Below the pieces are notes generated by a model, which was not told the DNA's origin, searched no databases, and saw only the letters and a program-made list of their open reading frames with translations. A DNA stretch of 56,129 bases, taken from IMG/VR virus record IMGVR_UViG_3300025892_000002; one strand, written 5' to 3'. Shown one piece after another: positions 28,077 through 56,129 of the stretch. The translations under genes were made by a program, and so were the position numbers. How positions within the stretch are numbered: the first letter of the stretch is position 1; every line of letters begins with the position of its first letter. This DNA is from a virus.

Positions 28077-29562
28077 CTTTCTTTTCTTTTGGTTCATCAG
28101 ACCACTCAGGATCTTCTGGATGTGATAAGTGCCAAGACTCTTTCATATAGTGTATAGCCATAGTCATAGCATCCACTTGGTCATCATGTGCAGCATTTGG
28201 AAAACGTAACATCTCTTCTAATAAATCTTCTGACCACTTTTTATTTTTAGGTAGCCATACTTTACCAGACTCCATCATGGGAGTAGACGCATAGACTCTT
28301 GATACTTTATCTCTATCAGGTAGATACTCTAGTACAGGTATACCAGCTCTACGCATATCTTGTATTAATGATTGACCAGATGCTTTCTTCTCTACCATAC
28401 ATACATCAGGTCTATGCTCCTGATACAATAGTTGCGTCATGCGCCTTAATTCTGGATATTCAAATCTTCCTTTAATGTTTCCTAGAAGAATAAGATTGCC
28501 TTCATAGCTTTCATATCCATCTTCAGTCTGATCATACATAGAGAATATACCCCATGTTTGAATAACACTATAATCTGCTGTAGTTTTTGTAGAGAATGCT
28601 GTATCATAGGTTTGTATTATAAAATCACAGGGTGGTGGTTCATCATATTCCCACCATTTAATCCATTTCTTCTTTATTAATCCACCTTCATCTGGTGTTG
28701 GGTCCTGCATATACAATGCATTCCAGTATCTGCTACCATTTGATGCTTTAATCTCGTGTTCATCTATACGTAGAACTTCTTCTGGTTTCCATTCAGGAAA
28801 ATAACTAGATCCTACTGGAAGATCTAACAATTTTGCAGCAGGTTCATCTAACCATGCAGGAATACGTACAACATCCCAGGGAATAACATCATAATCTCCT
28901 GCATTATCCTCTTGTTTTAGTAACCATCCACATAAATCATCATAATGATACCTTGTATTAATAATTAGTATAGAACCATTAGGCATAATACGTGTTCTTA
29001 GTCCTGCAGGGTACCATTCCTTAACGTATCTTCTACCTGCTTCAGAGTAGGAGTCTTCTTCTGACATGACATCATCAAGAATTGCGATATGTGCTCCTCT
29101 TCCTGCAATCTGGGATCTAACTCCAGCAGCGTAATACTGTCCTCCTTTGTTAGTCTTCCACTTTCCTGCAGCTCGTACATCTGATCGTAAGGACACTCCT
29201 TGGAAGACATCTTGAAACTCTTCAGTATTGACAATGTCCCTGACAGAACGCCCAAAATCACTTGATAACTGGTCACTATGGGAAACAGTAAGTATCTCAT
29301 GTTCTGGATTCCTTCCTATATACCATGCTGGAAACAATTTAGAACAGATAACAGACTTAGAAGACCTAGGAGGTAGAAAGACCATTAGCCTTTTAATGTC
29401 TCCAGACTCTAATTGTAGTAATTTATCTGCTATTACTTCAATATGTTTACCCATCTTAAAGTCTGACACAAGCATTGGTGCCATTTGTTTGACAAACGTA
29501 AGAAAATCTTGCTTAGATTCTTGTTTAATCTTATACTTTAACATTATATCTAAGTCTAACAA
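28057..29562 (-). CDS. terL: Terminase large subunit, 501 aa
   Basis: Walker-A-like PPRSSKS, Walker B AILDDV, nuclease Asp motifs (TYDTAFS, HDDQVDA). The track start is TTG 29562; ATG 29544 is an alternative. Confidence 0.85.
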   Translation of the reverse strand: MLDLDIMLKYKIKQESKQDFLTFVKQMAPMLVSDFKMGKHIEVIADKLLQLESGDIKRLMVFLPPRSSKSVICSKLFPAWYIGRNPEHEILTVSHSDQLSSDFGRSVRDIVNTEEFQDVFQGVSLRSDVRAAGKWKTNKGGQYYAAGVRSQIAGRGAHIAILDDVMSEEDSYSEAGRRYVKEWYPAGLRTRIMPNGSILIINTRYHYDDLCGWLLKQEDNAGDYDVIPWDVVRIPAWLDEPAAKLLDLPVGSSYFPEWKPEEVLRIDEHEIKASNGSRYWNALYMQDPTPDEGGLIKKKWIKWWEYDEPPPCDFIIQTYDTAFSTKTTADYSVIQTWGIFSMYDQTEDGYESYEGNLILLGNIKGRFEYPELRRMTQLLYQEHRPDVCMVEKKASGQSLIQDMRRAGIPVLEYLPDRDKVSRVYASTPMMESGKVWLPKNKKWSEDLLEEMLRFPNAAHDDQVDAMTMAIHYMKESWHLSHPEDPEWSDEPKEKKVAYWRV

Positions 29563-29701
29563 GTTTTCAAAGTAAGGCGTAGGCTCTATATGTTCTATAA
29601 CTTCTATAACATTATATCCTTATTGTATATCTTTATATTTATTATTATTATATTAACAATAACAATAATAACAAGCAATAGTATTTTATATATTATATAT
29701 A

Positions 29702-29730
29702 ATTATACAAACCTTTTTTAAGATTGTCAA
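29702..29730 (-). promoter_or_regulatory. Perfect-consensus sigma70 promoter on - strand (TTGACA-N17-TATAAT) heading the leftward late arm
   Basis: Reverse complement of 29725-29730 = TTGACA and of 29702-29707 = TATAAT, with an exact 17-nt spacer. Confidence 0.65.
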
Positions 29731-29972
29731 GTCTTTTATTATTTATTTTTATTATGGTTAGTCTGACAAGGTTTTTTGTAAATATATGGCACCCCTATAT
29801 ATATATAATAAACTCGCCTGAATTTTTGGGGTGGGGTGTTCCCTTTTTGTTCTATAATCCTTTATTTCTGTCAAAAAGATACCTTATCATTATAAAACAT
29901 TATAAAAAGTGAGTAGATTATACAATTTATAACCCCCTTTATGTTATACAATCGTATTATCTAATATAAATC

Positions 29973-30015
29973 CTTATATATAAAGCGTTCTTATATCTCT
30001 TATATACTCTTATAT
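29973..30015. repeat. Four direct CTTATAT repeats in the divergent control region
   Basis: Copies start at 29973, 29990, 29999 and 30009; the last three are ~1 helical turn apart. The AT-rich background lowers significance. Confidence 0.35.
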
Positions 30016-30059
30016 AGTTAGTTCTAATAATATAAATAGTTATGCTTATGATTATATAT

Positions 30060-30073
30060 GGTGACTAGTCACC
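30060..30073. promoter_or_regulatory. Palindrome GGTGACTAGTCACC, copy 1, immediately followed by CTATAAT
   Basis: Direct read; perfect 14-bp inverted repeat. Confidence 0.8.
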
Positions 30074-30103
30074 CTATAATATTATTTAAATATATATATT
30101 TGT

Positions 30104-30132
30104 TTGACAATATGAGATGATTGAATTATATA
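30104..30132 (+). promoter_or_regulatory. Sigma70-type rightward early promoter TTGACA-N17-TATATA
   Basis: TTGACA 30104-30109, TATATA 30127-30132 (TATAAT at 30129-30134 with N19); ~70 nt upstream of ATG 30201. Confidence 0.55.
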
Positions 30133-30200
30133 ATGGGTAACCAAGAAAAACTACGTTATAACCATTTGGATATAGCGAACTTAAATAAAGGAAACTAAAA

Positions 30201-30815
30201 ATGACTAACACTATAAAAGAAGTAAAACTAAATAAGACAATTCAAGCATCTATTAAAGCTACAGGTTTAATTATGCCTAAGTACTTAGAAAGTAAGAAGG
30301 TATTAAATAAAGCTACTGGCTTGGTAGATAAAGAAGGATTTATAATAGTAGCCCATATGATTAGCGCATATTCTTTTGAATTAAATGATAAAGAGAAAGC
30401 TTTATATATGAAAAGTATTATTAGAACTGGAATGAGTGAGACTGAATTCAAGGAAAAGAGAAAGGTAGCTAATTCACCAGTAATAAAATCTATTATTAAA
30501 TCTAATTCAACCCATCAATCAGTTTTAAGAGAATTAGAGAAATTAGATTTACATACTATGACAAGTGTTAAGACTTTTAAGAATTCTCATAAAGTTATAG
30601 ATGGTGAATTTCTAGTTAAAAAAGATTTACCTAGTAATAAGGTTCAATCTGATAAAGAAGCACCTATTGAAAAGAATGAAAAGAAATTAGATATTTCTAA
30701 AATGAATAGAGATGAATTAATTTCTCAAATATCCATTAGGCAAATGGAAATTGAATTAATGAAAGTTCAATTAAATAAACTTAATCAAGAAAGCGAGGAT
30801 GTAAAAATAGCTTAA
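30201..30815 (+). CDS. First early protein, 204 aa, C-terminal coiled coil, unknown function
   Basis: RBS AAAGGAAA upstream; followed by a strong terminator. Confidence 0.55.
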   Translation: MTNTIKEVKLNKTIQASIKATGLIMPKYLESKKVLNKATGLVDKEGFIIVAHMISAYSFELNDKEKALYMKSIIRTGMSETEFKEKRKVANSPVIKSIIKSNSTHQSVLRELEKLDLHTMTSVKTFKNSHKVIDGEFLVKKDLPSNKVQSDKEAPIEKNEKKLDISKMNRDELISQISIRQMEIELMKVQLNKLNQESEDVKIA

Positions 30816-30834
30816 CTTTTAAACATCTAATATT

Positions 30835-30868
30835 AAAGCCCTTGTATTAATTTATAAGGGCTTTTTTT
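30835..30868 (+). terminator. Rho-independent terminator
   Basis: AAAGCCCTT (30835-43) pairs with AAGGGCTTT (30856-64), 12-nt loop, run of 7 T to 30868. Confidence 0.75.
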
Positions 30869-30912
30869 ATGTCTAATTTAAGAGCCCTTCACTATCCTTT
30901 ACTATATATCTA

Positions 30913-30956
30913 AGCACCTACACCCTACCAAGCACCTCCAATAGCTAACTAGCACC
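30913..30956. repeat. Three AGCACC (GGTGCT on - strand) repeats in a C-rich, G-poor untranslated island
   Basis: Copies at 30913, 30931 and 30951 (spacing 18 and 20 bp), plus AGCCTATT twice at ~30964-30982. Confidence 0.35.
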
Positions 30957-30982
30957 CCTTAAAAGCCTATTAAATAGCCTAT

Positions 30983-31010
30983 TTGACTTAGATTAATAGC
31001 TATATATACT
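30983..31010 (+). promoter_or_regulatory. Sigma70-type promoter candidate TTGACT-N16-TATACT
   Basis: TTGACT 30983-88, TATACT 31005-10; upstream of ATG 31034. Confidence 0.4.
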
Positions 31011-31033
31011 ACACTTAATGAAAGGTTATAAAA

Positions 31034-31222
31034 ATGAAATATAATAATATACAAAAATTAACTAATAATTGGAAAGCTAATGAAGGTAATTCATGTAAAG
31101 TTTTATATAATGGATTGAAAAGAATTAAACATAAAAAACCCAGTAGCTTAAAAGTATATCATAAGATAAGCGCAAATACTTTTATACATATTATGACTGG
31201 TGAAAAGATTATTATTAAATAA
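31034..31222 (+). CDS. Basic early protein, 62 aa
   Basis: ORF with AAAGG RBS. Confidence 0.45.
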   Translation: MKYNNIQKLTNNWKANEGNSCKVLYNGLKRIKHKKPSSLKVYHKISANTFIHIMTGEKIIIK

Positions 31223-31225
31223 GAG

Positions 31226-31239
31226 GGTGACTAGTCACC
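31226..31239. promoter_or_regulatory. Palindrome GGTGACTAGTCACC, copy 2
   Basis: Starts 4 nt after the stop at 31222. The downstream 27 nt (ATACAAAATAGAAAGGAACTAATCAGA ATG) are nearly identical to those after copy 3. Confidence 0.8.
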
Positions 31240-31266
31240 ATACAAAATAGAAAGGAACTAATCAGA

Positions 31267-31461
31267 ATGTTAAAATTTATTATGCAATTATGGATATTAA
31301 CTTTTATATGTATATCTCTTTTAATACTATTCATGGCACTAGGTGGACATGAACACCAAGCTATATTAGATGGTGCTAAATTTAGTACTAAAATATTAGT
31401 AGCTAGTAATATAGTTATTGATACTGTTATATTAGTTATATATATTTTATTTAAAAGATAG
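31267..31461 (+). CDS. Early small membrane protein, 64 aa, two TM segments
   Basis: LWILTFICISLLILFMAL and IVIDTVILVIYILF hydrophobic stretches. Confidence 0.5.
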   Translation: MLKFIMQLWILTFICISLLILFMALGGHEHQAILDGAKFSTKILVASNIVIDTVILVIYILFKR

Positions 31462-31475
31462 GGTGACTAGTCACC
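31462..31475. promoter_or_regulatory. Palindrome GGTGACTAGTCACC, copy 3
   Basis: Begins the base after the stop at 31461; followed by TTACAATTAGAAAGGAACTGAACAGA ATG. Confidence 0.8.
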
Positions 31476-31501
31476 TTACAATTAGAAAGGAACTGAACAG
31501 A

Positions 31502-31657
31502 ATGATAATAGATAACTATACAATAATAAATGTGAGAAACTTTAAAGATTATAAAGATAAAGTCTTTTATATTAAACCCTTTAAACTTAATATAGCGAAC
31601 CCTTTATTATTTTTTTATATGAGATTAGCAAGGAAAGGAACTGGACAGAATGAGTAA
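31502..31657 (+). CDS. Early protein, 51 aa (ATG 31502; the track ORF starts at a non-ATG inside the palindrome)
   Basis: AAAGGAA RBS 9 nt upstream of ATG 31502. Confidence 0.4.
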   Translation: MIIDNYTIINVRNFKDYKDKVFYIKPFKLNIANPLLFFYMRLARKGTGQNE

Positions 31658-32435
31658 TGGATTTATATTTAATGAAACATCTGACATAGTTAGTATTGCT
31701 ACCTTCAATTCATCTAATCCAAAGACAGGTGATGAGGTGCAGACATGGATAATATATAAACATGAGCCACCACATGTAGCTATAGACACAGGCAAAGACT
31801 CTATAATATGTGGTGATTGTAAGCATAGAGGTAAGGTGTTATCTTTTAAAGATGCTCTCAAGTATGCTAATATATTATCTAATGTTAAGAAGAAAGCACT
31901 ACTAAAAAGAATAGATACTAAAAGAGAGAAAGGTTTAAATAGTATTAATGTTGATAGAAGATGTTACGTTACTACATGGCAAGCACCACTAAGCATATAC
32001 AAAGCATGGAAGAAAGGTAACTATCCAACACTAACACCCAAGCAAGCGCAGAAAAGATTAGCTTATAAGAAGGTAAGGCTTGGCTCGTATGGTGACCCAG
32101 TACACGTACCACTAGAGGTATGGAATACTATATTAAAATTTACACTAGGCACTACTGGTTACACGCACCAATGGAAAAACTTAGAGTATATAGGATATAG
32201 TAAATATCTTATGGCAAGTGTTGATACATCAGAAGAAATGTTTCAAGCTAATGTTTTAGGATACAGAACTTTTAGAGTAAGGAAAAAGAATGAAGAGGTG
32301 CAACCAAATGAAGTGGGTTGTTTATCTGATAGGAATGCAAGAGGTACTAAGAAACTTGTACCTTGTGTAGATTGTATGATGTGTAGTGGTTTGACATCTA
32401 AAGTTACTAAAGATATATCTATCATACAACATTAA
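31650..32435 (+). CDS. Cys-rich conserved early protein, 261 aa, unknown function
   Basis: CGDCKHRG, RRCYV, GSYGDPVHVP, YTHQW and PCVDCMMC motifs suggest metal binding. Confidence 0.5.
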   Translation: MSNGFIFNETSDIVSIATFNSSNPKTGDEVQTWIIYKHEPPHVAIDTGKDSIICGDCKHRGKVLSFKDALKYANILSNVKKKALLKRIDTKREKGLNSINVDRRCYVTTWQAPLSIYKAWKKGNYPTLTPKQAQKRLAYKKVRLGSYGDPVHVPLEVWNTILKFTLGTTGYTHQWKNLEYIGYSKYLMASVDTSEEMFQANVLGYRTFRVRKKNEEVQPNEVGCLSDRNARGTKKLVPCVDCMMCSGLTSKVTKDISIIQH

Positions 32436-32437
32436 CA

Positions 32438-32454
32438 GTTACCATTTTGGTAAC
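32438..32454 (+). other. Short hairpin GTTACC-ATTTT-GGTAAC just after the stop codon
   Basis: 32438-43 pairs with 32449-54. Confidence 0.3.
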
Positions 32455-32461
32455 ATAACAA

Positions 32462-32475
32462 GGTGACTAGTCACC
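32462..32475. promoter_or_regulatory. Palindrome GGTGACTAGTCACC, copy 4
   Basis: Direct read; 18 nt upstream of ATG 32494. Confidence 0.8.
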
Positions 32476-32493
32476 CTATTGAAAGGAAAGAAC

Positions 32494-32778
32494 ATGAAGA
32501 ATAAATTTGGTAAATCAAAAAACATTGACAATGCATATGCTACATACAGAGTAGTAACAGATAGTGGTATGTACTTTGAATGGAAGATTTTAAAGACATG
32601 GCAACACAAAGACAATGAAGATAAGAACCCTTATGCTAGGTGGTATACTGCATGCAAATCTCCTATGACCTACGATAGTTGGGAATATGGTGATGCTTAC
32701 ATAAAAGAAATACTAGACACTAATCCAGAGTTAATATCAGCAACAGAAGAATGGAAGGAAACATACAATGAAGTATAA
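32494..32778 (+). CDS. Early protein, 94 aa (the track gives a TTG start at 32479)
   Basis: GAAAGGAAAG RBS before ATG 32494. Confidence 0.5.
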   Translation: MKNKFGKSKNIDNAYATYRVVTDSGMYFEWKILKTWQHKDNEDKNPYARWYTACKSPMTYDSWEYGDAYIKEILDTNPELISATEEWKETYNEV

Positions 32779-33070
32779 AAAATATGAGCTATGGTGGGCT
32801 ACATTTAAAACAATGCTCACATTAAAACCTATGTATGCACAAGTAAATGAAACAGATTTAGATAATGTCTATACAGAACATGTAAGAAAGTTTAAGTATG
32901 GCTATCTATTCTATAGAGATATGATAGATTTCTATAACAATAAAGAATATCTAGGTGCATTCTTTAGTATAACAAAAGAACAATATGATATACGTAAAGA
33001 AGAGAACATGATGAGAGATTATGTAGCTGAAGCACATGAGAATGGTAACCCATATAACGTGAGAGGATAA
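32768..33070 (+). CDS. Early protein, 100 aa
   Basis: ORF overlaps the previous gene by 11 nt. Confidence 0.5.
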   Translation: MKYKKYELWWATFKTMLTLKPMYAQVNETDLDNVYTEHVRKFKYGYLFYRDMIDFYNNKEYLGAFFSITKEQYDIRKEENMMRDYVAEAHENGNPYNVRG

Positions 33071-33074
33071 TGAA

Positions 33075-33257
33075 ATGAATGTGATACCATTTAAAAAGAA
33101 AGAAGATACTACATACAAAACAAATATACATTATAGATTTGGACAAGCTAAAGCATTGCTTAATTATGTACTAACTAATGACAGCTTGACTACTATAGAG
33201 AGAACAGCTATAGATAATTTTATAATTAATGATGATAAAATAAAGGAGAATACATGA
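33075..33257 (+). CDS. Early protein, 60 aa
   Basis: ORF with GAGAGGA RBS. Confidence 0.45.
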   Translation: MNVIPFKKKEDTTYKTNIHYRFGQAKALLNYVLTNDSLTTIERTAIDNFIINDDKIKENT

Positions 33258-33457
33258 CAGCATTACAGAACAGTTACTTACTAGAACTAGAAGAAAAGTA
33301 TGGAGATAAAGCATTATCTTTTTTAAATAAAGGGTATAACTTTTCTGAACAGTTTGCTAATGAGTTTATTAAACAACACAACGTACCAGACCATGAAGAA
33401 GAATATGTTTCTGAGTGGTTACAAGAAGGATATAAGGAGGTGATGAGTGGAGTATAA
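33254..33457 (+). CDS. Acidic early protein, 67 aa
   Basis: ATGA overlap with the previous gene. Confidence 0.5.
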   Translation: MTALQNSYLLELEEKYGDKALSFLNKGYNFSEQFANEFIKQHNVPDHEEEYVSEWLQEGYKEVMSGV

Positions 33458-33617
33458 AGAAATACAAACTTACTTAGATGCTGATAGTTTTATTGAAGCA
33501 CATAAAGGACTATGGGATATGCTAGAAAGTAAGTATAAAAAGATAGATGAAGAAACTGTAGTGATAGATAATACTACATGGAAACTAATGAAAGGAAGTA
33601 TGACATGCATAAAGTAA
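33447..33617 (+). CDS. Unlisted GTG-initiated ORF, 56 aa
   Basis: AAGGAGG 6 nt upstream of GTG 33447; hand-translated to TAA 33615-17; fills an otherwise empty 120 nt in a tightly packed region. Confidence 0.4.
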   Translation: MEYKEIQTYLDADSFIEAHKGLWDMLESKYKKIDEETVVIDNTTWKLMKGSMTCIK

Positions 33618-33763
33618 ATAAAGATATACTTGTATCAGCAAGTGATGTAAGTAAAGAAGAACAAGAAGAATATAATAAGTGGATTGATAAACAAAATAAA
33701 GATAAAGAAAGAACAGAAGATTTAGACAATCAATACTATAGTGAAGGAGAACAACATGAATGA
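33605..33763 (+). CDS. Acidic early protein, 52 aa (the track start 33578 is less likely)
   Basis: AAAGGAAG RBS before ATG 33605. Confidence 0.4.
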   Translation: MHKVNKDILVSASDVSKEEQEEYNKWIDKQNKDKERTEDLDNQYYSEGEQHE

Positions 33764-33947
33764 CTTACAAAACAGTATAGGTAATGTTTCAAATACATTA
33801 CAACAAGCAAAAGAATATGCAGATAGAGCTGTGGATAGTGCTAATGAGGCTGAGATACAAGCTAGTGAAGCACATACACAAGCAATAGAAGCACGTGAGC
33901 TAATAGAGAGAGCTATGGAGTGGCTAGAGGAGTTAGACAATGAGTGA
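33756..33947 (+). CDS. Coiled-coil early protein, 63 aa
   Basis: AAGGAG 6 nt before ATG 33756 (the track start is 33741). Confidence 0.5.
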   Translation: MNDLQNSIGNVSNTLQQAKEYADRAVDSANEAEIQASEAHTQAIEARELIERAMEWLEELDNE

Positions 33948-34134
33948 TAAACAATTAGCTGAAAAACATTTTGGTATGTTGCATGACAATTGGATAGGTG
34001 ATGAGCAAAGACACTATGAAGAGTATTATGGTGTGGAATGTGCTGATAAAATTTCAACATCTAAATTAAAAGAACATACTTACAAAGACTTGAGAGTAAT
34101 ACAAGAATTTTTTGAGGAGTATCATTATGCCTAA
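33940..34134 (+). CDS. Early protein, 64 aa
   Basis: 8-nt overlap with the previous gene. Confidence 0.5.
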   Translation: MSDKQLAEKHFGMLHDNWIGDEQRHYEEYYGVECADKISTSKLKEHTYKDLRVIQEFFEEYHYA

Positions 34135-34315
34135 TAAGATGAGTAGAGATATAAATACAATACCAACTACAGACAGACACATAGTAAGCTATCAACTATA
34201 TGTAGAGTGGAATGATAGTCCTAAATTAGTACGACTAAATCATGATATGCCTAGCCATGTAGCCAATGCTATTGATGAATGGTTTGGAGATATAGAAACA
34301 GAGGAGAATGTATAA
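34127..34315 (+). CDS. Early protein, 62 aa
   Basis: ATG 34127 (MPNKMSRD...) preferred over the track start 34112. Confidence 0.45.
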   Translation: MPNKMSRDINTIPTTDRHIVSYQLYVEWNDSPKLVRLNHDMPSHVANAIDEWFGDIETEENV

Positions 34316-34515
34316 TGACATGGTCTAAAACTCCAGAGCAAATGGGTATACAACCATGTGAAGTATGTGGTGAAGATACTAGCTTTGGCTCTGGTAGATT
34401 TGTTAATCGTATACCATGTGATGATAATTATATGTGTTATGAATGCCTTGCTGAAATTGAAAAAGAAATAGAGGAGGAAAGTGAAATGCAAAAGGAGAAT
34501 GATAATGATAGATGA
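34315..34515 (+). CDS. Zn-ribbon early protein, 66 aa
   Basis: CEVC...(23 aa)...CYEC; TAATG overlap at 34315. Confidence 0.5.
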   Translation: MTWSKTPEQMGIQPCEVCGEDTSFGSGRFVNRIPCDDNYMCYECLAEIEKEIEEESEMQKENDNDR

Positions 34516-34659
34516 TGCAATAACAACTGTAGGTTTTGCTTTACAATCTTATGTTAATACTTGTATCCATGAGGATACTGAAGAGAACAAAGCAGAACGT
34601 GAAGAACTAGAAGAAGCATGGGCAGTAATAAAAAAGAAATTATTTAAGGAGAATAGCTA

Positions 34660-34902
34660 ATGACTAAAATATATATTAGAAAAGTTCATGACGACCAAGC
34701 ATATACTATTTCTTTTGGCACAGAGAAAGATGTTAAAAATTGGAAAGAGGAACAAAAGGAATGGGAAGAGGAAGATTTTTCTGTAGCTGACGATAGTATA
34801 GAATTACTTTGTGAATTTAAAGACAATAATTTACGTGAAGTATTACAAAAAATTAACAAAGAATTAGATGTGTTAGTTAAATTGGGAGTGTTACACAGAT
34901 GA
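34660..34902 (+). CDS. Early protein, 80 aa
   Basis: AAGGAGAA RBS upstream. Confidence 0.5.
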   Translation: MTKIYIRKVHDDQAYTISFGTEKDVKNWKEEQKEWEEEDFSVADDSIELLCEFKDNNLREVLQKINKELDVLVKLGVLHR

Positions 34903-35459
34903 ACATATTTGTATTAGACAAAGACCCTATCATATCTGCACAGATGCAATGTGATAAGCACATAGTAAAGATGCCATTAGAAACTGCACAGATGTTGTGT
35001 TCTGTATGGCATAGGTATGGTTCAGCAGATAGAGTACCATACAAGGAAGCACATAGAAACCACCCATGTACACTATGGGCAGGAGATGATGCACATAATT
35101 ATGATTGGCTATGGAGACATGGCATGGAGCTATGCTTTGAGTACACCAGAAGGTATAACAATATACACAAGTGCCAAGCTATTATCATGGACTTAACAAT
35201 AGATAATGTTGGCTTTGCTTTTGAACACATGAGCAGACAAGGTACACCACACCCACTATGTATGCCAGATGTACATAAAGAAGAAGATAATGCTGTATTA
35301 TCATACAGAAGATACTATGCTAATGATAAGAAAGATATAGCTAAGTGGGAGAAGACAAGACCTATGCCAGATTGGTATGCTAGTGGTGCGTATAAGATAG
35401 ATGTTGACTTTGATATTATGGGACAAGAGTTTGCAAACTTAGGTGCGTATGATGGATAA
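34899..35459 (+). CDS. Conserved viral protein, 186 aa, with an N-terminal D-K-H-x2-K-M-x-L-E-x-A-Q motif (possibly DenV/pyrimidine-dimer-glycosylase-related)
   Basis: MNIFVLDKDPIISAQMQCDKHIVKMPLETAQML...HRNHPCTLW...NYDWL; family membership recalled only loosely. Confidence 0.3.
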   Translation: MNIFVLDKDPIISAQMQCDKHIVKMPLETAQMLCSVWHRYGSADRVPYKEAHRNHPCTLWAGDDAHNYDWLWRHGMELCFEYTRRYNNIHKCQAIIMDLTIDNVGFAFEHMSRQGTPHPLCMPDVHKEEDNAVLSYRRYYANDKKDIAKWEKTRPMPDWYASGAYKIDVDFDIMGQEFANLGAYDG

Positions 35460-35464
35460 TAAAC

Positions 35465-35493
35465 TTGACATGTTTCAAGAAGTAATGTAAGGT
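35465..35493 (+). promoter_or_regulatory. Possible promoter TTGACA-N17-TAAGGT (the -10 may instead be the RBS)
   Basis: TTGACA 35465-70. TAAGGT 35488-93 lies only 7 nt from ATG 35500, so this is either a leaderless transcript or a chance TTGACA. Confidence 0.25.
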
Positions 35494-35499
35494 ACGAAC

Positions 35500-35700
35500 A
35501 TGAATAAAAACTTTGTAATAGCTTTTATATCTCAAGATAAAGATATTATATTAGAACCATTAGCAAAGTTCAATGGTGATGTTATGTATTTTAAATCTTC
35601 ACATGATGCAAGAGATTATATAGAAAAGTTATATGTTAATAGTGGAGTTGATGCTGTAGAATATGATGATGATGGTTTAGAAATAATAAGAGTTCAATAG
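35500..35700 (+). CDS. Early/middle protein, 66 aa
   Basis: ORF ends directly at palindrome copy 5. Confidence 0.5.
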   Translation: MNKNFVIAFISQDKDIILEPLAKFNGDVMYFKSSHDARDYIEKLYVNSGVDAVEYDDDGLEIIRVQ

Positions 35701-35714
35701 GGTGACTAGTCACC
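35701..35714. promoter_or_regulatory. Palindrome GGTGACTAGTCACC, copy 5
   Basis: Begins the base after the stop at 35700; 19 nt upstream of ATG 35734. Confidence 0.8.
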
Positions 35715-35733
35715 TTGCAACAAGGAGAAACAA

Positions 35734-35898
35734 ATGGCACAAACAGAATTAGATGTGTTACGTAGAAATGTAAAAGAATTACAGATGCAATTACGTGATG
35801 CTCATATACGTATTAAACATCTTCAAGAAATTAAATGGGCAGAAAGAGCTAATGAAAATCCTGATGCTTTACATATAAAAGGAGATAAAGATGAGTGA
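35734..35898 (+). CDS. Unlisted coiled-coil ORF, 54 aa (MAQTELDVLRRNVKELQMQLRDAHIRIKHLQEIKW...)
   Basis: AAGGAGAAA RBS; hand-translated to TGA 35896-98. Confidence 0.5.
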   Translation: MAQTELDVLRRNVKELQMQLRDAHIRIKHLQEIKWAERANENPDALHIKGDKDE

Positions 35899-36253
35899 GA
35901 ATAAATTTACTGATTGGTTACATAAAGAATTACAACAACAACAAAAAGAAAAGGAAACTATAATGGCTAGAGCAATAAAAAAAGATGGTGCTATGATTTT
36001 AGATGAAGCACAAAAGAAACACTTACTAGATTTATTTAATGCAGGTAGAGAAGTTTTTGATGACTTTGATATTAGATTTGTTAGAGCATGGGATTTAAAA
36101 CAACTTGAAGATTTAATAGATGATATGAAAGATGCCTTTGGTATAGCACCTAAACTATCTGAATATAAACATGATGATGGTAGTGATATGCCTGCACATT
36201 TTCAAGACCACGTATGGTCTGATGACCCAAGAGCATACAAAAGAAAGGACTAA
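35891..36253 (+). CDS. Protein, 120 aa, unknown function
   Basis: AAAGGAGATAAAG RBS; 8-nt overlap with the previous ORF. Confidence 0.5.
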   Translation: MSENKFTDWLHKELQQQQKEKETIMARAIKKDGAMILDEAQKKHLLDLFNAGREVFDDFDIRFVRAWDLKQLEDLIDDMKDAFGIAPKLSEYKHDDGSDMPAHFQDHVWSDDPRAYKRKD

Positions 36254-36254
36254 T

Positions 36255-36443
36255 ATGCCTATTAATTTATGGGATAAAGAATATAATAAAATATATAAAG
36301 AACTTCTACGTGAGTATCTTGATGATGGTTACGATTTAAATGAAGCAGAACGTAATGCTAAAAGAGATGCTAAAGAAATGATGAAAGACCAACTTGACTT
36401 TGTTGAAGACTTATGGGACAAAGCATTTAAAGATTTGGAGTAA
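36255..36443 (+). CDS. Protein, 62 aa (MPINLWDKEY...)
   Basis: ATG 36255 follows the stop at 36253; the track start 36171 would overlap by 83 nt. Confidence 0.45.
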   Translation: MPINLWDKEYNKIYKELLREYLDDGYDLNEAERNAKRDAKEMMKDQLDFVEDLWDKAFKDLE

Positions 36444-36447
36444 TGAT

Positions 36448-38088
36448 GTGGATAATAAATTAATAAGTAAAGGAGCATGCTCCAAGTGTGGTTCAAGTGA
36501 TGCAAGGGCAATCTATTCAGATGGTCATAGCTATTGTTATTCATGTGAAACAAGATTTAAAAAAGGAAATGATATGGAAACTGAGAAAATAATACCTATA
36601 AGACTAGAGAATGCTATCAAGACTTTTGGTACACTAGGTGCGTTGAGTGAACGTAGTATTCTTAAAGAGACAGCACATAAATATAATACAGATGTTAAAG
36701 TAAAAGGTAGTATGAACACACATCATATCTATAAATACTTTGATGAAGGTGGTAACAACATAGCTAATAAGGTACGTGAGGTAGCTACTAAAGATATGTG
36801 GTCTGAAGGTAATCTAACTAATGCAGGATTGTTTGGTCAGAATATCTTTGCACCTAAAGGAAAGTACATTACTATTACTGAAGGTGAAGTAGATGCTATG
36901 TCTGCCTACGAATTACTAGGTAGTAAGTGGGCATGTGTATCTATAAAGAATGGAGCACAGTCAGCACTACGTGATTGTAAGAAAGCATTTGAATATCTTG
37001 ATAGCTTTGACCAGATAGTTATATCCTTTGATATGGATAAGCAAGGAAGAGAAGCAAGTGAGAAGGTAGCCCAACTCTTTTCACCTAACAAGTGTAAGGT
37101 CATGCACATGGAACATAAAGATGCTAACGAATATCTCAAGATGAATAAACGTGAGCAGTTCTCAAGAGCATGGTGGAATGCAAAGACTTATACTCCTGCA
37201 GGTATAGTAAACTTAAAAGAGTTAAAGGATACTTTGTTTGAAGAAGAGTATTGTGAGACTGTACTATTTCCTTGGGCTAAACTTAATGAGAAGACCTATG
37301 GTATGCGTACTGGTGAGCTGATTACTTTAACATCAGGTGCAGGTATGGGTAAGAGTTCTATCATGCGTGAGTTGATGCATCATATGTTAAAGAATACAAA
37401 AGATAATGTAGGTATCCTAGCACTAGAAGAGAACACAAAGAACACAGCATTTAATATTATGTCTGTTGAAGCTAATGCAAGACTCTATATTAATGAGATA
37501 CGTAAGAAGTATAGTCAAGACAAATTAGATAAATGGTTTGATGATACTATAGGTACTGGTAGGTTCTTTGCCTTTGACCATTTTGGTTCTACATCTAATG
37601 ATGAGATACTTGCAAGGGTTAGGTTCATGGCACAAGCATTGGATTGCAAGTGGATATTCCTAGACCATCTCTCTATCCTAGTATCAGGTCAGGAAGAAGG
37701 AGATGAAAGAAAATCTATTGATGTACTGATGACTAAGCTACGTTCATTAGTAGAGCAGACAGGTGTAGGATTACTATTAGTATCCCATCTACGTAGACCT
37801 TCAGGTGATGCAGGACATGAGAATGGTAAAGAGATTACTCTCTCACATCTACGTGGCTCTGCATCTATAGCACATCTATCTGATAGTGTGATAGGATTAG
37901 AACGTAATCAACAAGCAGATGATGAGGTAGCTTCTAACACTACCACCATACGTATTCTAAAGAATAGATATACTGGTGAGACAGGTGTAGCTACACATCT
38001 TTACTATGATAAAGAGACTGGTCGTATGAAAGAGATTGACAATCCTTACGAAATAGATAATAACAATGGAGAGGAGGCACCATTTTAA
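36448..38088 (+). CDS. Bifunctional primase-helicase, T7 gp4-like
   Basis: Zn ribbon CSKCGSSD...CYSC, TOPRIM EGEVDAMS/DMDKQG, Walker A GAGMGKSS, DnaB-type FLDHLS. GTG 36448 with GGAG 7 nt upstream is preferred; the in-frame ATG 36394 (track) is the alternative. Confidence 0.85.
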   Translation: MDNKLISKGACSKCGSSDARAIYSDGHSYCYSCETRFKKGNDMETEKIIPIRLENAIKTFGTLGALSERSILKETAHKYNTDVKVKGSMNTHHIYKYFDEGGNNIANKVREVATKDMWSEGNLTNAGLFGQNIFAPKGKYITITEGEVDAMSAYELLGSKWACVSIKNGAQSALRDCKKAFEYLDSFDQIVISFDMDKQGREASEKVAQLFSPNKCKVMHMEHKDANEYLKMNKREQFSRAWWNAKTYTPAGIVNLKELKDTLFEEEYCETVLFPWAKLNEKTYGMRTGELITLTSGAGMGKSSIMRELMHHMLKNTKDNVGILALEENTKNTAFNIMSVEANARLYINEIRKKYSQDKLDKWFDDTIGTGRFFAFDHFGSTSNDEILARVRFMAQALDCKWIFLDHLSILVSGQEEGDERKSIDVLMTKLRSLVEQTGVGLLLVSHLRRPSGDAGHENGKEITLSHLRGSASIAHLSDSVIGLERNQQADDEVASNTTTIRILKNRYTGETGVATHLYYDKETGRMKEIDNPYEIDNNNGEEAPF

Positions 38089-45920: not shown

Positions 45921-46688
45921 ATGAATACAGTTTATATAGGGTATGACCCCAAAGAAGATACAGCATATGAAGTTTTAAAGTTTACCATAGAAAGAATATC
46001 AGGTAATAACATACGTGTTGTACCATTAAGAAAAGATCTATTAGAACTTACAGGAATGTACAAACGTAAGTCTGAGTTAATAAAAGGACAGCCTTATGAT
46101 GTTATAGATGGCAGACCTTTCTCAACTGAGTTTAGCTTTAGTAGGTTTTTAGTACCTGCTTTAAATTTATATGAAGGTAAAGCTTTATTTATGGATTCAG
46201 ATATGTATTTACGTGCTGATGTAAATGAGCTATTTGAAATGTGTGATATGGATTACTATCCTGTATGGTGTGTTCATCATGACTACAACCCAAAAAATAA
46301 AACAAAAATGGATGGTAAAGAACAACACCAATACAACAGAAAGAATTGGTCTAGTCTTATAATGTTTAATTGTGGACATAGTGAGAATAGAAAGCTTACA
46401 CCTGAAGTAGTTAATACACAAACAGGTAGATGGTTACATGGCTTTGGTTGGTTGCCTGATAAAGAAGCAGACATAGGTAGAATACCTGAAGAATGGAATT
46501 GGTTAGATGGTCATTCACCACCAGACATGGATGCAAAGAATGTACACTTTACTACAGGTGGTCCTTGGTTTAAAGATTGGAAACCAAGAGGAGAAGTAGA
46601 AGGTAAGTATGCTGTTGAATGGTGTAATGATGCAGACTACTTAAAGCTTAAAGGTATAATTAAAATGGATAAGGACTACATGATATGA
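45921..46688 (+). CDS. Glycosyltransferase (GT-A fold, GT8-like), 255 aa
   Basis: FSFSRFLVP, DxD motif FMDSDMY (D92-S-D94), HFTTGGPW. Confidence 0.6.
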   Translation: MNTVYIGYDPKEDTAYEVLKFTIERISGNNIRVVPLRKDLLELTGMYKRKSELIKGQPYDVIDGRPFSTEFSFSRFLVPALNLYEGKALFMDSDMYLRADVNELFEMCDMDYYPVWCVHHDYNPKNKTKMDGKEQHQYNRKNWSSLIMFNCGHSENRKLTPEVVNTQTGRWLHGFGWLPDKEADIGRIPEEWNWLDGHSPPDMDAKNVHFTTGGPWFKDWKPRGEVEGKYAVEWCNDADYLKLKGIIKMDKDYMI

Positions 46689-49012
46689 AGATAAATTTTG
46701 TTACTTCTTTTAATGAAGATATTTATAAAATTGCAGGACATCATTTACTTAAATCAATTAAAGATAATTGGAAACCTGATATAAATGTAACATGTTACTA
46801 TCATAATTTAGATTTAAAAAACTATTCTATACTAGAAAATAACTCAGTATCTTTTAGAAAATTAGAAAAGATAGAAGATTATAAACTATTTAAAGAAGTA
46901 AATATAACACATGATGGTACAGAGAAAGGACAAATTCCTTACAACTGGAAATTAGATGCTACTAAATGGTGCAATAAAGTATTTGCTTTGACTGAGAAAG
47001 CTTTTGAATTAGCAGAAGAATCTAAAGATGCAGGTTGGTTGATATGGATTGATGCTGATTCTATGTGTCAAAAAAGATTAGTACCTGAAGACATACTTAA
47101 TATGTTAAATGATGATTGTGATATAGCTTATTCAGGTGTAAGAGATTATCCTGATGGTTCTAGGTATCTTGATACATCTTTCATGGCTTTTAATTTAAAT
47201 AAGAAACCTGCTCTTGATTTACTTGGTGACTTACGTGGTGCTTATAACTCAGGAGAACTACTACAGTACAGAGAATGGCATGACTCTTTCTTAATGGAAA
47301 GGCTTTTAAATATTTATAAAGCTCATGGTATGCATATAGAATCTGTTGAACAAATTAAAGATTACATTACACACTTTCAAGGTATAGAAAATATAAGTCT
47401 TAATCCTATTAGAGATAATGATGGTAATAGATTAGTTGCTTTATCAGAAGATAAAACATCTCAAGACATTATGCCTACAAGATATAAACAATTAGCTGAT
47501 GTTATTAGAGAATATAAACCTAAGTCTATAATAGAAGTAGGGACATGGAATGGTGGTCGTGCTATTGAAATGGCTCTTGCTGCTTTTGAAAGTCAAGATG
47601 AACTATTGTATAGAGGGTTTGATTTATTTGAAGATGGTACTTTAGAAACAGATTCAGAAGAATTTAATCTTAAAGCACACAATACTCAGAGTGCTGTTAT
47701 AAAAAGATTACAAGACTTCAGGGCTAGGATGATGGAGAAAAAGAAAGTCTTTACATTTGAGTTAGGGAAAGGTAACTCAAAAGATATACTAAAAGATCGT
47801 ACAGATTTAGATGCTGATCTTGTTTTAATAGGTGGTGGTAATAGTATAGCTACTACAAGAAGTGACTATGATAATTTAAAACATAATCCTATTATTGTTA
47901 TTGATAATTTCTTTAGAGAAGATGAAGAAAAAATAAATGCTCCTGAACAATACCAAGGAACAAATAAAATTTTTGATAGTTTACCTAAAGGAAAAAAAGA
48001 TGGAGTACGTAGATGGGTATTACCTTCTCAAGATAAAGTAAGAGGTGGTGGTTTTACACATCTTACTGTTATACTTACTGATAAAAAATTACAAGATATA
48101 CCTAAAGGTTTATTAAGTGTTCCTATTGTAGTACATCCTAGAGATTGTGTACCTAAAGATTTTATTAGGGATAACATTAGAACTAATTTAAAACTTATAA
48201 AGACTTGGCTAGGTAAATTTCCTATGCATCAAGGTAATGTTACACTTGTATCAGGTGGTCCTTATTTAAATATACCTAAATTAAAAGCACATATAAAAAA
48301 TAATCCTGATAGTAAAATTGTATGTGTTAAACATTCTTATCCTACACTTATTAATAATGGTATACTTCCTTGGGCATGTATTGTACTAGACCCTAGACCT
48401 ATTACAGGTACAAGTACACATGGTGTAGTAAGAAAAGATTTATTTAAAAAGGTAGAAAAGAAAACTAAATTCTTTGTAGCTTCCATGACTGATCCTTCTG
48501 TTACTGAACATTTAATATCTAAAGGTGCAGAAATACATGGATGGCATGCATTTACAGAATCATTACGTGATCCAGAAGAACAGAAGAAAGCAGTACATAA
48601 TAATTCTGTTACTCTTAATCCTGCTATAGGTATACCTCAAGGTGCTACTCTTATTACAGGTGGTACATGTGCTGCTATGAGAGCTTTAGGTATCTTTCAT
48701 ACTATGGGATTCAGACACTTTGACTTGTTTGGATTTGATTGTAGCATGGAAGAACCTACTAAAGAACAACAGAAAGAAACTACAGGTGCTGAAGATGAAG
48801 AACCTAAACCTAAATATTTTAAAGTAGGTATAGGAGATACACAGTATTGGACTACAGGAGAACTTCTTGCTATGGCACAAGACTGTGAAAGAACATTTGC
48901 TAATCCACCTATGGAAATGAATTTAAATTTCTATGGTAAAGGTACATTGGTAGCTGCTCTATGGAATTTACAACCTAAACCAAAAACATTTGAGGAAACA
49001 TTTAATGGATAA
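46685..49012 (+). CDS. Three-domain 775-aa protein: GT-A-like transferase + class I SAM methyltransferase (TylF/CmcI-like) + DUF115/MptE/Maf-like transferase
   Basis: WLIWIDADSM (DxD, aa ~118-127). IIEVGTWNGGRAIEMAL...GFDLFE (~47468-47914). VSGGPYLN...VCVKHSYPTLINNGILPWACIVLDP...GGTCAAMRALGIFHTMGFRHFDLFGFD (~48167-48919). Confidence 0.55.
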   Translation: MKINFVTSFNEDIYKIAGHHLLKSIKDNWKPDINVTCYYHNLDLKNYSILENNSVSFRKLEKIEDYKLFKEVNITHDGTEKGQIPYNWKLDATKWCNKVFALTEKAFELAEESKDAGWLIWIDADSMCQKRLVPEDILNMLNDDCDIAYSGVRDYPDGSRYLDTSFMAFNLNKKPALDLLGDLRGAYNSGELLQYREWHDSFLMERLLNIYKAHGMHIESVEQIKDYITHFQGIENISLNPIRDNDGNRLVALSEDKTSQDIMPTRYKQLADVIREYKPKSIIEVGTWNGGRAIEMALAAFESQDELLYRGFDLFEDGTLETDSEEFNLKAHNTQSAVIKRLQDFRARMMEKKKVFTFELGKGNSKDILKDRTDLDADLVLIGGGNSIATTRSDYDNLKHNPIIVIDNFFREDEEKINAPEQYQGTNKIFDSLPKGKKDGVRRWVLPSQDKVRGGGFTHLTVILTDKKLQDIPKGLLSVPIVVHPRDCVPKDFIRDNIRTNLKLIKTWLGKFPMHQGNVTLVSGGPYLNIPKLKAHIKNNPDSKIVCVKHSYPTLINNGILPWACIVLDPRPITGTSTHGVVRKDLFKKVEKKTKFFVASMTDPSVTEHLISKGAEIHGWHAFTESLRDPEEQKKAVHNNSVTLNPAIGIPQGATLITGGTCAAMRALGIFHTMGFRHFDLFGFDCSMEEPTKEQQKETTGAEDEEPKPKYFKVGIGDTQYWTTGELLAMAQDCERTFANPPMEMNLNFYGKGTLVAALWNLQPKPKTFEETFNG

Positions 49013-49649
49013 CTATGTATTACCTACAAAACCTAAACCTTCTGAAAAGTATTTAGAATTAATAGAAGCTTATAAACATTTACATGAAGATGATGCTAAG
49101 TTTCAAGGTATAAGTTTAATACCTTTTGCTATAGATATATATGGCATTATACAATATAATAAATGTAAATCTATTTTAGATTATGGTTGTGGCAAAGGGT
49201 ATCCTTACAAAGAACAATACAAAAATCTTAATCATAAAGGAAAGATACCTAACTTTGATAAACCTTTACATTTATGGTGGGGTATAGAAGATTTATTCTT
49301 ATATGATCCAGGTGTACCAGAACATGATAAGCTACCTACTAAAAAACATGACATGGTAATATGTACTGATGTGTTAGAACATATACCTGAAGAAGATTTA
49401 GATTGGATAATACGAGAGATATTTAGTCTATCTAGTTCAACAGTCTTTATAAACATATCTTGTGAACCTGCTTTAAAAACATTTACTACAGGTAAATATA
49501 AGGGAGAGAATGTACATGTTTCTTTATTTGATAATAAATGGTGGGTAAATAAAATGAAAGGTATATGGAAAGAGTACAAAGATTTAAAAATATACTTGAC
49601 TTGTACATCAAAAGAAGGTATAATAGGGACATGTATCAAAGGAGATTAA
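49005..49649 (+). CDS. Class I SAM-dependent methyltransferase, 214 aa
   Basis: Motif I ILDYGCGKG and DMVICTDVLEHIPEEDLDW. ATG 49005 with GAGGAAA RBS preferred over the track TTG 48990. Confidence 0.65.
   Translation: MDNYVLPTKPKPSEKYLELIEAYKHLHEDDAKFQGISLIPFAIDIYGIIQYNKCKSILDYGCGKGYPYKEQYKNLNHKGKIPNFDKPLHLWWGIEDLFLYDPGVPEHDKLPTKKHDMVICTDVLEHIPEEDLDWIIREIFSLSSSTVFINISCEPALKTFTTGKYKGENVHVSLFDNKWWVNKMKGIWKEYKDLKIYLTCTSKEGIIGTCIKGD
49596..49624 (+). promoter_or_regulatory. Promoter TTGACT-N17-TATAAT inside the methyltransferase 3' end, upstream of the holin gene
   Basis: TTGACT 49596-601, TATAAT 49619-24, AAAGGAG 49638-44, ATG 49651. Confidence 0.6.
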
Positions 49650-55900: not shown

Positions 55901-56129
55901 CTCCAAAAAAAGTTACTTCTAATCCCATATTATTTATAAAAGCTTGTACTCTTTGTTGAGCTGCTGTATCATTAGGATTAATAGCTAAACTTTCTAAAGC
56001 TAAAGTTGATTCAGGAAACTTTTCTAATAAAAAATTAACAGCATTCTCTTGTGGGTCTTCTACTATTGTAGCACTTGCAGCAAAAGCTGTACCATAGAGT
56101 GCTAAATTTTTAGCAACTGTAGCTATCCT
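52998..56129 (-). CDS. C-terminal ~1000 codons of the 1247-codon junction-spanning virion protein (56003-56129 duplicates 1-127)
   Basis: The track ORF 52998..55928 begins at an internal Met; the frame is open upstream to the window end. Confidence 0.8.
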   Translation of the reverse strand, partial: RIATVAKNLALYGTAFAASATIVEDPQENAVNFLLEKFPESTLALESLAINPNDTAAQQRVQAFINNMGLEVTFFGGLKGLSLTYKGIKAGTKKVIPTQLNKLLTATTSRRGMTDDVLANFVKYNAVAKNAYDTAVVESRELSKLMKKDKFDSVENIAVVNEALAGNKSALAQLPSLVKPKVIGMRKEIDDLSGYFLKENRTSGGLKVTIQDNLKTYITRTFEMFENPSYIREMKSVLKKNRKNISNNQLDRISNIGMRDISDYLINTMNLTPAQAAENINQALKNYQKGPDGIGSFLSDLAGTASSKTGSTTKGFFKRKKLDEKVKSFLGEVKDPNLNYVNAYQKLAVYKAEVDFLETLAKDMIDSGAAKESIKKGKQMFAPEDVGKFELANDVAQERLAKIFGKGPINKGSIKNPLEGLYIDPNYKQALKDGLQAINPTESSAMRSWLALKTTSQLGLTALNPATHAVNVFGNNIFMAANGFIPGTRGAVNAATFVGSKLSGLTTKNLTQKWNRYRELGITGSDVLTETIRANIKQMSRGINMYDKPSVARKLLTSPYKVTKKTLGKVIDTYQLEDDIYKIMHFENTIKYLSKAFPERSLIEIEEMAAKRTRDLMPNYLIAPKFLKKLRNKPIGDFATFAAESTRVAKNLVAYTVEDALSGNPELMSLAARRLGGMTIAGLGADVLQAKSQVMMGISDDEKEASYIVGPSFNYNVPQFYLSGVEDYKGKKVIRSVSSGSLDPFSFIKSAARFTHKILNDDEMSLEKIKNIRYEPELFKLGISMVDKTLAPFLGTSIITDSLVQAVKDVDEGNPGAAVYGVGEALLFPGVRKFIQNRAEFESQKGYIPEGERTKGRSDSLISTEYKGVPGQTDWKALLGFKVNLQDLSSSVKYNIGYDLNNINKNKKLSQLLKGIDGPILKLKKFGRNFAGDRAVTTEQDLKNAKKSDELRILRDEKNIRMYVEAYKTLGFSMEDIVKNLRNNNNIDILVNIGLNMHTPSKLTSSDIDNYQKKLKKLGINLPVEYFQKMDEATTGSKINEED
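56003..56129. repeat. Terminal duplication copy B (identical to 1-127)
   Basis: Direct read. Confidence 0.95.

Follow-up and report, generated by a model that had tools for sequence, protein, structure and literature searches.

Introduction

In Cluster O mycobacteriophages, 17-bp dyad-symmetric repeats (5'-TGTTCGGNNNCCGAACA) with a 7+3+7 architecture occur in more than 30 copies genome-wide, sites in coding regions included, and were proposed to be the binding sites of a dimeric regulator with an unknown effect (PMC4351075). The stoperators of Cluster A, the sites of L5 gp71-type repressors, are asymmetric, bound by a monomer and oriented with transcription, and they belong to the immunity system of temperate phages (PMC6550527, PMC9283540). 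The PeSLs of T4-type phages are composites of a terminator-like stem-loop and a sigma-70 early promoter (PMC2839356, PMC4122927). Here, we describe a 14-bp palindrome, GGTGACTAGTCACC, that is repeated in the early region of the genome of an uncultured marine phage, IMG/VR virus record IMGVR_UViG_3300025892_000002. The whole stretch of DNA analysed (56,129 nucleotides, nt) is called the window, and the copies of the palindrome and their counterparts in relatives are called boxes.

The operators of phage 434 are also dyad-symmetric sites of 14 bp, with conserved outer arms and a variable centre that is not contacted. Lambdoid operators are clustered and overlap promoters, and their type co-varies with that of the regulator in mosaic modules. 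Repetitive extragenic palindromic (REP) elements, which are mobilised by RAYT transposases, are short extragenic palindromes that occur in both orientations just past stop codons. The boxes are a real, non-random and lineage-specific family of cis-elements, and most likely belong, as far as their sequences indicate, to a known kind, the dispersed dyad-symmetric regulator sites of phage genomes. They would most likely be the docking site of a phage-made DNA-binding protein, because relatives have other palindromes at these positions, which switch with the first early gene, here called g1. We give about even chances to the reading that they are operator-like sites of a dimeric phage-encoded protein, probably g1, and in addition junctions at which gene cassettes are gained and lost.

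Results

Five identical boxes in the early region

An earlier note on this DNA had counted five identical copies of the palindrome and had placed none of them inside a gene, and both statements hold. The window contains exactly five exact copies of the perfect 14-bp palindrome, M1 to M5. All of them are outside open reading frames (ORFs) and within the first 5.7 kb of the rightward early region, and the late genes contain no copy:

M1, 30060–30073, no strand: box in the divergent late/early intergenic region, 30 nt 5' of the −35 hexamer of the g1 promoter
M2, 31226–31239, no strand: box 3 nt past the g2 stop codon and 27 nt before the g3 ATG
M3, 31462–31475, no strand: box abutting the g3 stop codon (TAG), 26 nt before the g4 ATG (31502)
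M4, 32462–32475, no strand: box after g5, 26 nt past its stop codon and 18 nt before the next ATG
M5, 35701–35714, no strand: box abutting the g19 stop codon, 19 nt before the g20 ATG

The expected number of copies is zero, as none of 100 dinucleotide-preserving shuffles gave a match. The exhaustive search on both strands that the note had recommended detected no additional site in the window when 1–3 mismatches were allowed. Non-coding DNA accounts for ~7.3% of the genome by a crude coding mask, and the chance probability of finding all five copies there is ~2e-6. The distances given in the note for four of the copies (0–26 nt past a stop codon and 18–27 nt before a start codon) were also correct; M1 is the odd one, lying in the divergent intergenic region.

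The conserved unit is longer than 14 bp. It consists of AG plus the core, has asymmetric flanks and is found in both orientations, with a conserved ATAG on one side of four of the five copies. The M4 and M5 regions are perfect inverted copies of each other over 25 nt, including 8 nt of the coding end of g19, and M3 and M4 are perfect inverted copies over 20 nt. Among the type-A strains (see below) the box is invariant; the neighbouring spacer bases vary. The flank that copies 2 and 3 had been said to share is present (~29 nt), but it is the ribosome-binding leader of the downstream genes, of which a box-less copy exists at 31633.

M4 sits between a conserved hairpin (32438–32454) and the ribosome-binding site of g6. 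This hairpin, GTTACCAnnnTGGTAAC, lies directly 3' of a gene for a 261-amino-acid protein (PHROG 2554, function unknown) and is kept in all five lineages described below, in contrast to the adjoining M4 box.

Box types among relatives carrying g1

The first two boxes enclose g1, its control signals and a second small gene, g2, followed by the leader:

g1 promoter, 30104–30134, + strand: sigma-70-like, TTGACA (30104–30109), 17 nt, TATATAAT (30127–30134)
g1, 30201–30815, + strand: first early gene, 204 amino acids, orphan family, candidate box-binding protein
Intrinsic terminator, 30835–30874, + strand: strong and canonical (30835–30864), with a 12-bp stem and a T-run; conserved in relatives
Second early promoter, 30983–31010, + strand: sigma-70-like, TTGACT-16-TATACT, ahead of g2; equivalent in relatives
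g2, 31034–31222, + strand: small basic protein of 62 amino acids, alternative candidate binder
Translation-initiation leader GAAAGGAACTnnnCAGAATG, 31250–31270, 31485–31505 and 31633–31653, + strand: near-identical across three consecutive genes

Both hexamers of the g1 promoter were conserved in an alignment of 12 relatives, and the terminator isolates g1 as its own transcription unit. The relatives with the box family were metagenome contigs encoding g1 homologues, and all of them kept the same layout: box, g1 promoter, g1, terminator, second promoter, g2, box. At least five lineage-specific box types were found among them:

Type A, GGTGACTAGTCACC: the window, L243, L257 and L261–263
Type B, GGTGA[CTAC/GTAG]TCACC: L264–273
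Type C, GGTGACTGGTCACC: L246–248 and L277–280
Type D, GGTTAGTACTAACC: L254–259
Type E, GTATAGTACTATAC: L283–286

The motif search among related phages that the earlier note had proposed thus recovered the box family at the same positions, with sequences that differ by lineage, whereas relatives retrieved by their primase are box-free, as described below. Two box positions are conserved in all five lineages, one located 22–31 nt 5' of the g1 promoter and the other at the g2 stop codon. In the non-mosaic genomes these M1 and M2 copies, ~1.2 kb apart, are of one type, the M1 copy of type C being one base off. Every lineage retains the flanks of M1 (TATGATTAT on the upstream side, the TTGACA promoter on the downstream side), between which the box has been exchanged.

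Types A, D and E are palindromic at all 14 of their 14 positions. Types A and D differ symmetrically at positions 4/11 and 6/9, types D and E differ symmetrically at positions 2/13 and 3/12, and the 5-bp arms are complementary in every type. The dyad symmetry of the boxes thus appears, on comparison of the sequences, to be maintained by selection. The centre varies in place. The core of the type-B M2 box is CTAC in L264 and GTAG in L265–273 (nine contigs), with identical flanks, and an identical g1 protein (P0045) is found beside an M1 centre of CTAG (L249) or CTGG (L246–247 and L250). Such variation beside identical g1 or flanks is expected if the arms alone are contacted.

In lineages C and B/E, a degenerate second box was observed 22–26 nt upstream of a perfect box (L246:3558–3597 and L284:4065–4100). 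The spacer of the pair lies 5' of a gene for a protein of 61–64 amino acids starting MNN, and the E version of the pair can fold into a hairpin of −20 kcal/mol. A perfect box paired with a degenerate one is an arrangement often typical of cooperative operators.

Box type and g1 change together

The box type tracks the type of the g1 N-terminal domain, and also the g2 type, in every lineage. A divergent family of the N-terminal domain is always found beside box E, and this combination occurs in three backgrounds. In L272, the background is type B, and M2 and M3 stay type B. In L274–276, the upstream flank and the C-terminus of g1 are window-like; the E box of these contigs was predicted before the contigs were retrieved. 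L283–286 have type-E boxes at M1, M2 and a third site, along with a distinct g2 variant of 82 amino acids. The N-terminal domain of g1 and the M1 box were swapped as a unit, the C-terminal domain was exchanged independently, and g2 likewise co-varies with the box type. To judge by these sequences, the type-B genomes look like E-type genomes in which the left module (box, g1, g2 and boxes) has been replaced. The relatives without g1 (L024, L042, L048 and L049), in which TerL and the whole early region are present, contain neither the repeated palindrome nor a substitute repeated palindrome of another sequence.

The joint swap of the N-terminal domain and M1 would also be expected if g1 were an initiator-like protein whose N-terminal domain binds M1 as part of a replication origin, with the other boxes as secondary sites. 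The arrangement would resemble that of the lambda O protein and the ori iterons, where the N-terminal domain and the sites co-vary. M1 lies beside a very AT-rich stretch in the region where the coding strand switches, and the genome encodes a primase-helicase and a DNA polymerase but no recognisable initiator. However, the boxes are single sites dispersed over 5.7 kb, unlike clustered iterons, four of the five are located precisely at gene junctions, and close relatives replicate without g1 or boxes. The GC skew here tracks gene orientation and is unusable for locating an origin. We therefore hold an origin function to be very unlikely.

The g1 family is tiny. It comprises 56 clusters, with 10 representatives among 1.84 billion proteins in an exhaustive HMMER search, and no relative of g1 was found in IMG/VR by single-protein or profile search. 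No homologue was detected in Pfam, PHROGs or PDB (profile search), or with Foldseek against PDB and BFVD. The AlphaFold2 model of g1, of moderate confidence (predicted local distance difference test, pLDDT, 73), is helical with a long C-terminal helix, which is predicted to form a coiled coil; in the same model, a helix-helix-beta-hairpin at residues ~105–139 is a possible winged helix-turn-helix. The model of g2, which always has a box directly 3' of it, was poor (pLDDT 58) and unfit for structure search.

Direct repeats are located at 30905–30985, just 5' of the second promoter, and consist of two copies of AAGCACCT (plus AGCACCC) and two copies of AGCCTATT. Relatives have two copies of GGCTATTGTA at this position. 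Judging from their sequence and place, these repeats are possible binding sites of another regulator or of g1 itself.

Duplex DNA, RNA hairpin, terminator or promoter

Acting as RNA, the palindrome could be a stem-loop in the polycistronic early mRNA, an idea that the earlier note had also raised. It would signal processing or stability of the transcript, or else bind a translational regulator, in the manner of REP stabilisers, the operators of T4 gene 43 and regA, or lambda boxB. All copies but M1 are suitably placed for such a role across lineages (0–26 nt past a stop codon and 18–27 nt before a start codon), the 5-bp arms are always complementary, and the central 4 nt vary as a loop would. 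The predicted hairpins, with a 5-bp stem and a 4-nt loop, are however weak, and their stability is not conserved (−4.5, −2.6 and −0.8 kcal/mol for types A, D and E, respectively); their z-scores were no better than those of shuffled sequences. The flip of the loop from CUAC to GUAG at one site in close relatives makes loop-specific recognition impossible, and M1 lies upstream of a −35 hexamer, far from any start codon. In types A, D and E the palindrome also extends across the centre, a feature that no hairpin needs. This symmetry at positions 6/9 and 7/8, unpairable in a hairpin, fits recognition of duplex DNA by a symmetric dimer, which the in-place flips of the centre and the location of M1 upstream of a promoter also favour. 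A search of Rfam over 29400–36500 yielded two sub-threshold chance matches, neither at a box. Taken together, these results make an RNA-level function rather improbable.

The judgement in the earlier note that the palindrome is a poor intrinsic terminator was sound, because no T-run is present on the transcribed strand at the boxes; the canonical terminator is elsewhere, at 30835–30864.

The note had further pointed to a −10-like hexamer after each copy and had suggested a distinct promoter class. In such a class, host RNA polymerase altered by a phage factor, or a phage polymerase that escaped recognition, would read the box together with a downstream TAnAAn hexamer, possibly as a variant of the DNA-hairpin promoters of N4. 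The boxes are indeed just 5' of genes, a TAnAAn hexamer follows most copies, and identity within a genome combined with divergence between lineages resembles the co-evolution of T7-like polymerases and their promoters. On inspection, the hexamers TACAAA and TACAAT proved to be part of the conserved leader (also written aCAAAnAGAAAGGAACTnnnCAGAATG or aCAAAnAGAAAGGAACT...ATG), which recurs throughout the early regions of the relatives before genes with and without boxes. Since this leader also exists box-free, the hexamers are no evidence for promoters. No −35/−10 pair at usable spacing, as a sigma-70 promoter would require, was found in or beside a box. In addition, a promoter has a direction, but this element is symmetric and has a centre that flips, and at M4 and M5 the ribosome-binding site is ~8 nt past the box, which leaves no room for a −10 hexamer and a start site. 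Neither an RNA polymerase gene nor a sigma-like gene was detected among the ORFs scanned (PHROGs and Pfam), a result on which N4-like hairpin promoters and T7-like promoters were also rejected. A promoter class of this kind is thus highly improbable.

Insertions, deletions and distribution of the boxes

A primase-based set of 80 IMG/VR loci (73–100% primase identity) contained GGTGACTAGTCACC in only two contigs, both essentially one phage, and the other loci of the set had no repeated palindrome of any sequence. At the M5 junction, relatives with 93–95% primase identity have the two genes abutting, with ~23–24 nt absent, so that M5 is an insertion of that length relative to them. M4 is an insertion of ~19–25 nt that is specific to the A lineage and absent from all other lineages. 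The contig L257 equals the window minus a 236-bp unit composed of g3 and M3, the deletion having occurred between two box-plus-leader repeats. The early region as a whole is hyperplastic, and gene order and content differ widely between relatives. As short identical repeats coupled to a common leader, the boxes may also act as junctions for the insertion, deletion and flipping of cassettes, and box and leader together look like a repeated cassette junction.

These indels raise the question of whether any protein has to be invoked. The boxes could be cassette-junction or recombination elements without a dedicated trans-acting factor, or a tiny selfish palindromic insertion. In that case, the palindrome and leader would have spread by template switching or gene conversion and would mediate the gain, loss and shuffling of early genes in a PeSL-like way. 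The M4 and M5 insertions, the perfect inverted match of M4 to M5 that takes in part of the g19 coding end, the precise removal of g3 and M3 in L257, the in-place core flips among close relatives and the shuffled gene order all agree with this explanation, and similar indels have been described for the Cluster O repeats and the PeSLs (PMC4351075, PMC4122927). It does not explain why perfect dyad symmetry persists through several symmetric substitutions, why M1 has a fixed place 5' of the g1 promoter in every lineage, or why boxes are restricted to genomes with the g1/g2 module. Moreover, most early gene junctions in the box-carrying genomes have no box. No transposase-like gene (transposase, RAYT or TnpA-like) was detected among the ORFs scanned, no homing nuclease was detected close to the boxes, and no multi-copy carrier of the repeat was found among bacterial and archaeal species-representative genomes. 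Recombination at the boxes is also compatible with operators and hence is not exclusive evidence for this explanation, which we regard as unlikely, if worth keeping in mind.

An instance of cassette exchange was seen at L005:1382–2320 (93% primase identity), where the early region of this close relative has a gene resembling C5 DNA cytosine methyltransferases at the place of other small genes in the window.

An exact 14-mer scan of IMG/VR found 23 stretches; two contigs came from the same phage, and the remaining stretches were unrelated and had one copy each. A search of 185,579 bacterial and archaeal species genomes with the 16-mer present in every one of the five copies produced 20 isolated chance matches (one stretch on both strands), and this isolation indicates that the repeat is not a REP-like element of the host. 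A metagenome scan with the 17-mer TAGGGTGACTAGTCACC was uninformative, as it was swamped by an unrelated high-copy, eukaryote-like transposon terminal repeat. The 17-mer lies within the terminal repeat CAGGGGCGGATCTAGGGGGTGAC...CCCCTGGCGCGGCAGCCTATTTCATG of a transposon-like element in L103–L222 (JGI samples Ga0126325-34 and Ga0136654). These are non-phage contigs of 40–55% G+C, and the match is a coincidence unrelated to the phage.

Genomic context

The first and last 127 nt of the window (1–127 and 56003–56129) are the same sequence, which indicates that the window is a complete, circularly assembled phage genome of ~56.0 kb; its G+C content is roughly 33%. Structural genes, including terminase and portal, run leftward from 29562. 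Rightward from 30201, a block of small orphan genes forms the early region, and genes for the primase-helicase, DNA polymerase, a Cas4-like exonuclease and ribonucleotide reductase lie 3' of this block. No tRNA was found in the genome, and the scanned ORFs yielded no integrase, no recognisable repressor, and no helix-turn-helix repressor or homologue of Cro. The closest isolates in a collection of phage records are SAR11 pelagiphages, with protein identities of only 40–50%, and among 50,697 phage records megablast found no nucleotide match to the region.

Three further features of the genome were observed. A perfect consensus sigma-70 promoter (TTGACA-17-TATAAT; 29702–29730, − strand) is directed leftward to the terminase and structural genes, and the late genes too are thus apparently dependent on host RNA polymerase. 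The divergent late/early intergenic region contains a conserved non-coding element, ggCACCCCtatatatatataataaactcgcctgaatttttGGGGTGGGGTGttccc (~29785–29850), which is also found in L254, L272 and L024 and occurs even in box-free relatives; possible identities are an origin, a packaging site and a small RNA. The stretch 46685–49649 encodes a protein of 775 amino acids with an MptE-like (DUF115-type) domain and, after it, a weak match to S-adenosylmethionine (SAM) methyltransferases, a pair that is unusual in the neighbourhood of a phage replication region.

Discussion

A binding site for a dimeric protein, which the earlier note had listed among its explanations, is the one best supported by the symmetric changes of the arms, the single type usually shared by the boxes of a genome and the co-variation with g1. 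What follows is inferred, from the binding of a protein and the choice of binder to the regulatory effect. The palindromes would be read as duplex DNA by a symmetric dimeric phage protein. The best candidate is g1, the first early protein, whose gene has a strong promoter and a terminator to itself and whose C-terminus is predicted to form a coiled coil, and the small basic g2 is the alternative. At M1, upstream of the g1 promoter, the bound protein may exert autoregulation or mark a boundary. At M2–M5, where a stop codon, the box and the ribosome-binding leader follow one another, it may block or modulate RNA polymerase between early cassettes, acting as an operator or a roadblock.

Several observations weigh against this interpretation. 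M1 is only ~125 bp from g1 and M2 abuts g2, so that the co-variation could be mere physical linkage in recombining modules. The mosaic L272 combines an E-type g1 with type-B M2 and M3, and a perfect orphan E box is present in all type-B genomes (L264–L273, for example at L265:2855), in which g1 is type B; in these mismatched mosaics, boxes persist without their supposed cognate g1. M2–M5 overlap no promoter, and M1 ends 22–31 nt upstream of the −35 hexamer, a variation in spacing that makes a strict activator geometry unlikely. No recognisable DNA-binding domain was found in g1 or g2 (Pfam, PHROGs, PDB sequence, and Foldseek against PDB and BFVD), the models of the two proteins being moderate and poor, respectively. 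Finally, close relatives (93–95% primase identity) are box-free, which shows that the boxes are dispensable for the wider phage group.

Two more speculative accounts of the box types can be considered, and we find it fairly improbable that either of them applies. In the first, g1 and the boxes would be a type-specific recognition system that diversifies rapidly and sorts these lytic marine phages into a kind of incompatibility or immunity groups. When a phage of matching type superinfects, the g1 protein of the resident phage would bind the junction boxes of the incoming genome and shut down its early operon, and the conflict between co-infecting relatives would drive the specificity switches that gave rise to types A–E. 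In the second, the box would be a minimal self-propagating palindromic insertion of 19–25 nt, which spreads and flips by template switching without a transposase.

If the interpretation of the boxes as operator-like sites is true, g1 and the boxes would become the first candidate pair of regulator and operator in a group of uncultured marine phages that is widespread and whose primase relatives are common in ocean viromes. As nearly every early gene of the group is an orphan, any functional handle should be useful. The five natural specificity types, together with the natural recombinants, would constitute a ready-made experiment on the co-evolution of a protein and its site. In addition, the boxes mark the exact sites at which early cassettes were inserted, deleted and flipped, which bears on the shuffling of hyperplastic regions.

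The comparison with known systems helps to place the boxes. The ATAG flank on four of the five copies recalls the 5' tetranucleotide of REP elements, but the boxes are perfect and much shorter, and they have neither a multi-copy host genome nor a detected RAYT or TnpA-like gene. They share with the PeSLs the form of short intergenic repeats in a hyperplastic region of small early ORFs, with flanking cassettes that are gained, lost and shuffled. Unlike PeSLs, they contain no usable promoter, and their stem of 5 bp (−4.5 kcal/mol or weaker) is not followed by a T-run.

Stoperators resemble the boxes in their length of 13–14 bp and in their repetition in short spaces between genes, close to stop and start codons; their sites and proteins co-evolve into specificity groups, and a block of transcription elongation has been proposed. 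The boxes, in contrast, are palindromic, have both flank orientations within one operon and, in type B, a core that is flipped in place. There are five of them within 5.7 kb and none in the late genes, in a genome with no repressor or integrase among the ORFs scanned. Being symmetric, unoriented and few, the boxes are not stoperators. The size, dyad symmetry, variable centre and apparent mosaic co-variation of the boxes recall the 434 and lambdoid operators, from which they differ in being single or paired and dispersed at gene junctions.

The closest analogue is the Cluster O repeat family. In both cases, the inverted-repeat arms are invariant, the centre is variable and the orientation is not meaningful; the repeats favour short spacers between genes, do not occur in the host genome and give rise to indels when copies recombine. 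The sequences are different, and the boxes have a 5+4+5 architecture and 2–5 copies confined to the first early genes. Unlike the Cluster O repeats, the boxes occur in at least five lineage-specific types that co-vary with an adjacent orphan gene, in another phage group with another host. Dispersed dyad repeats of this sort are thus already known in other phages, and the boxes reveal no new principle; their attraction lies in the natural specificity variants tied to an orphan first early gene.

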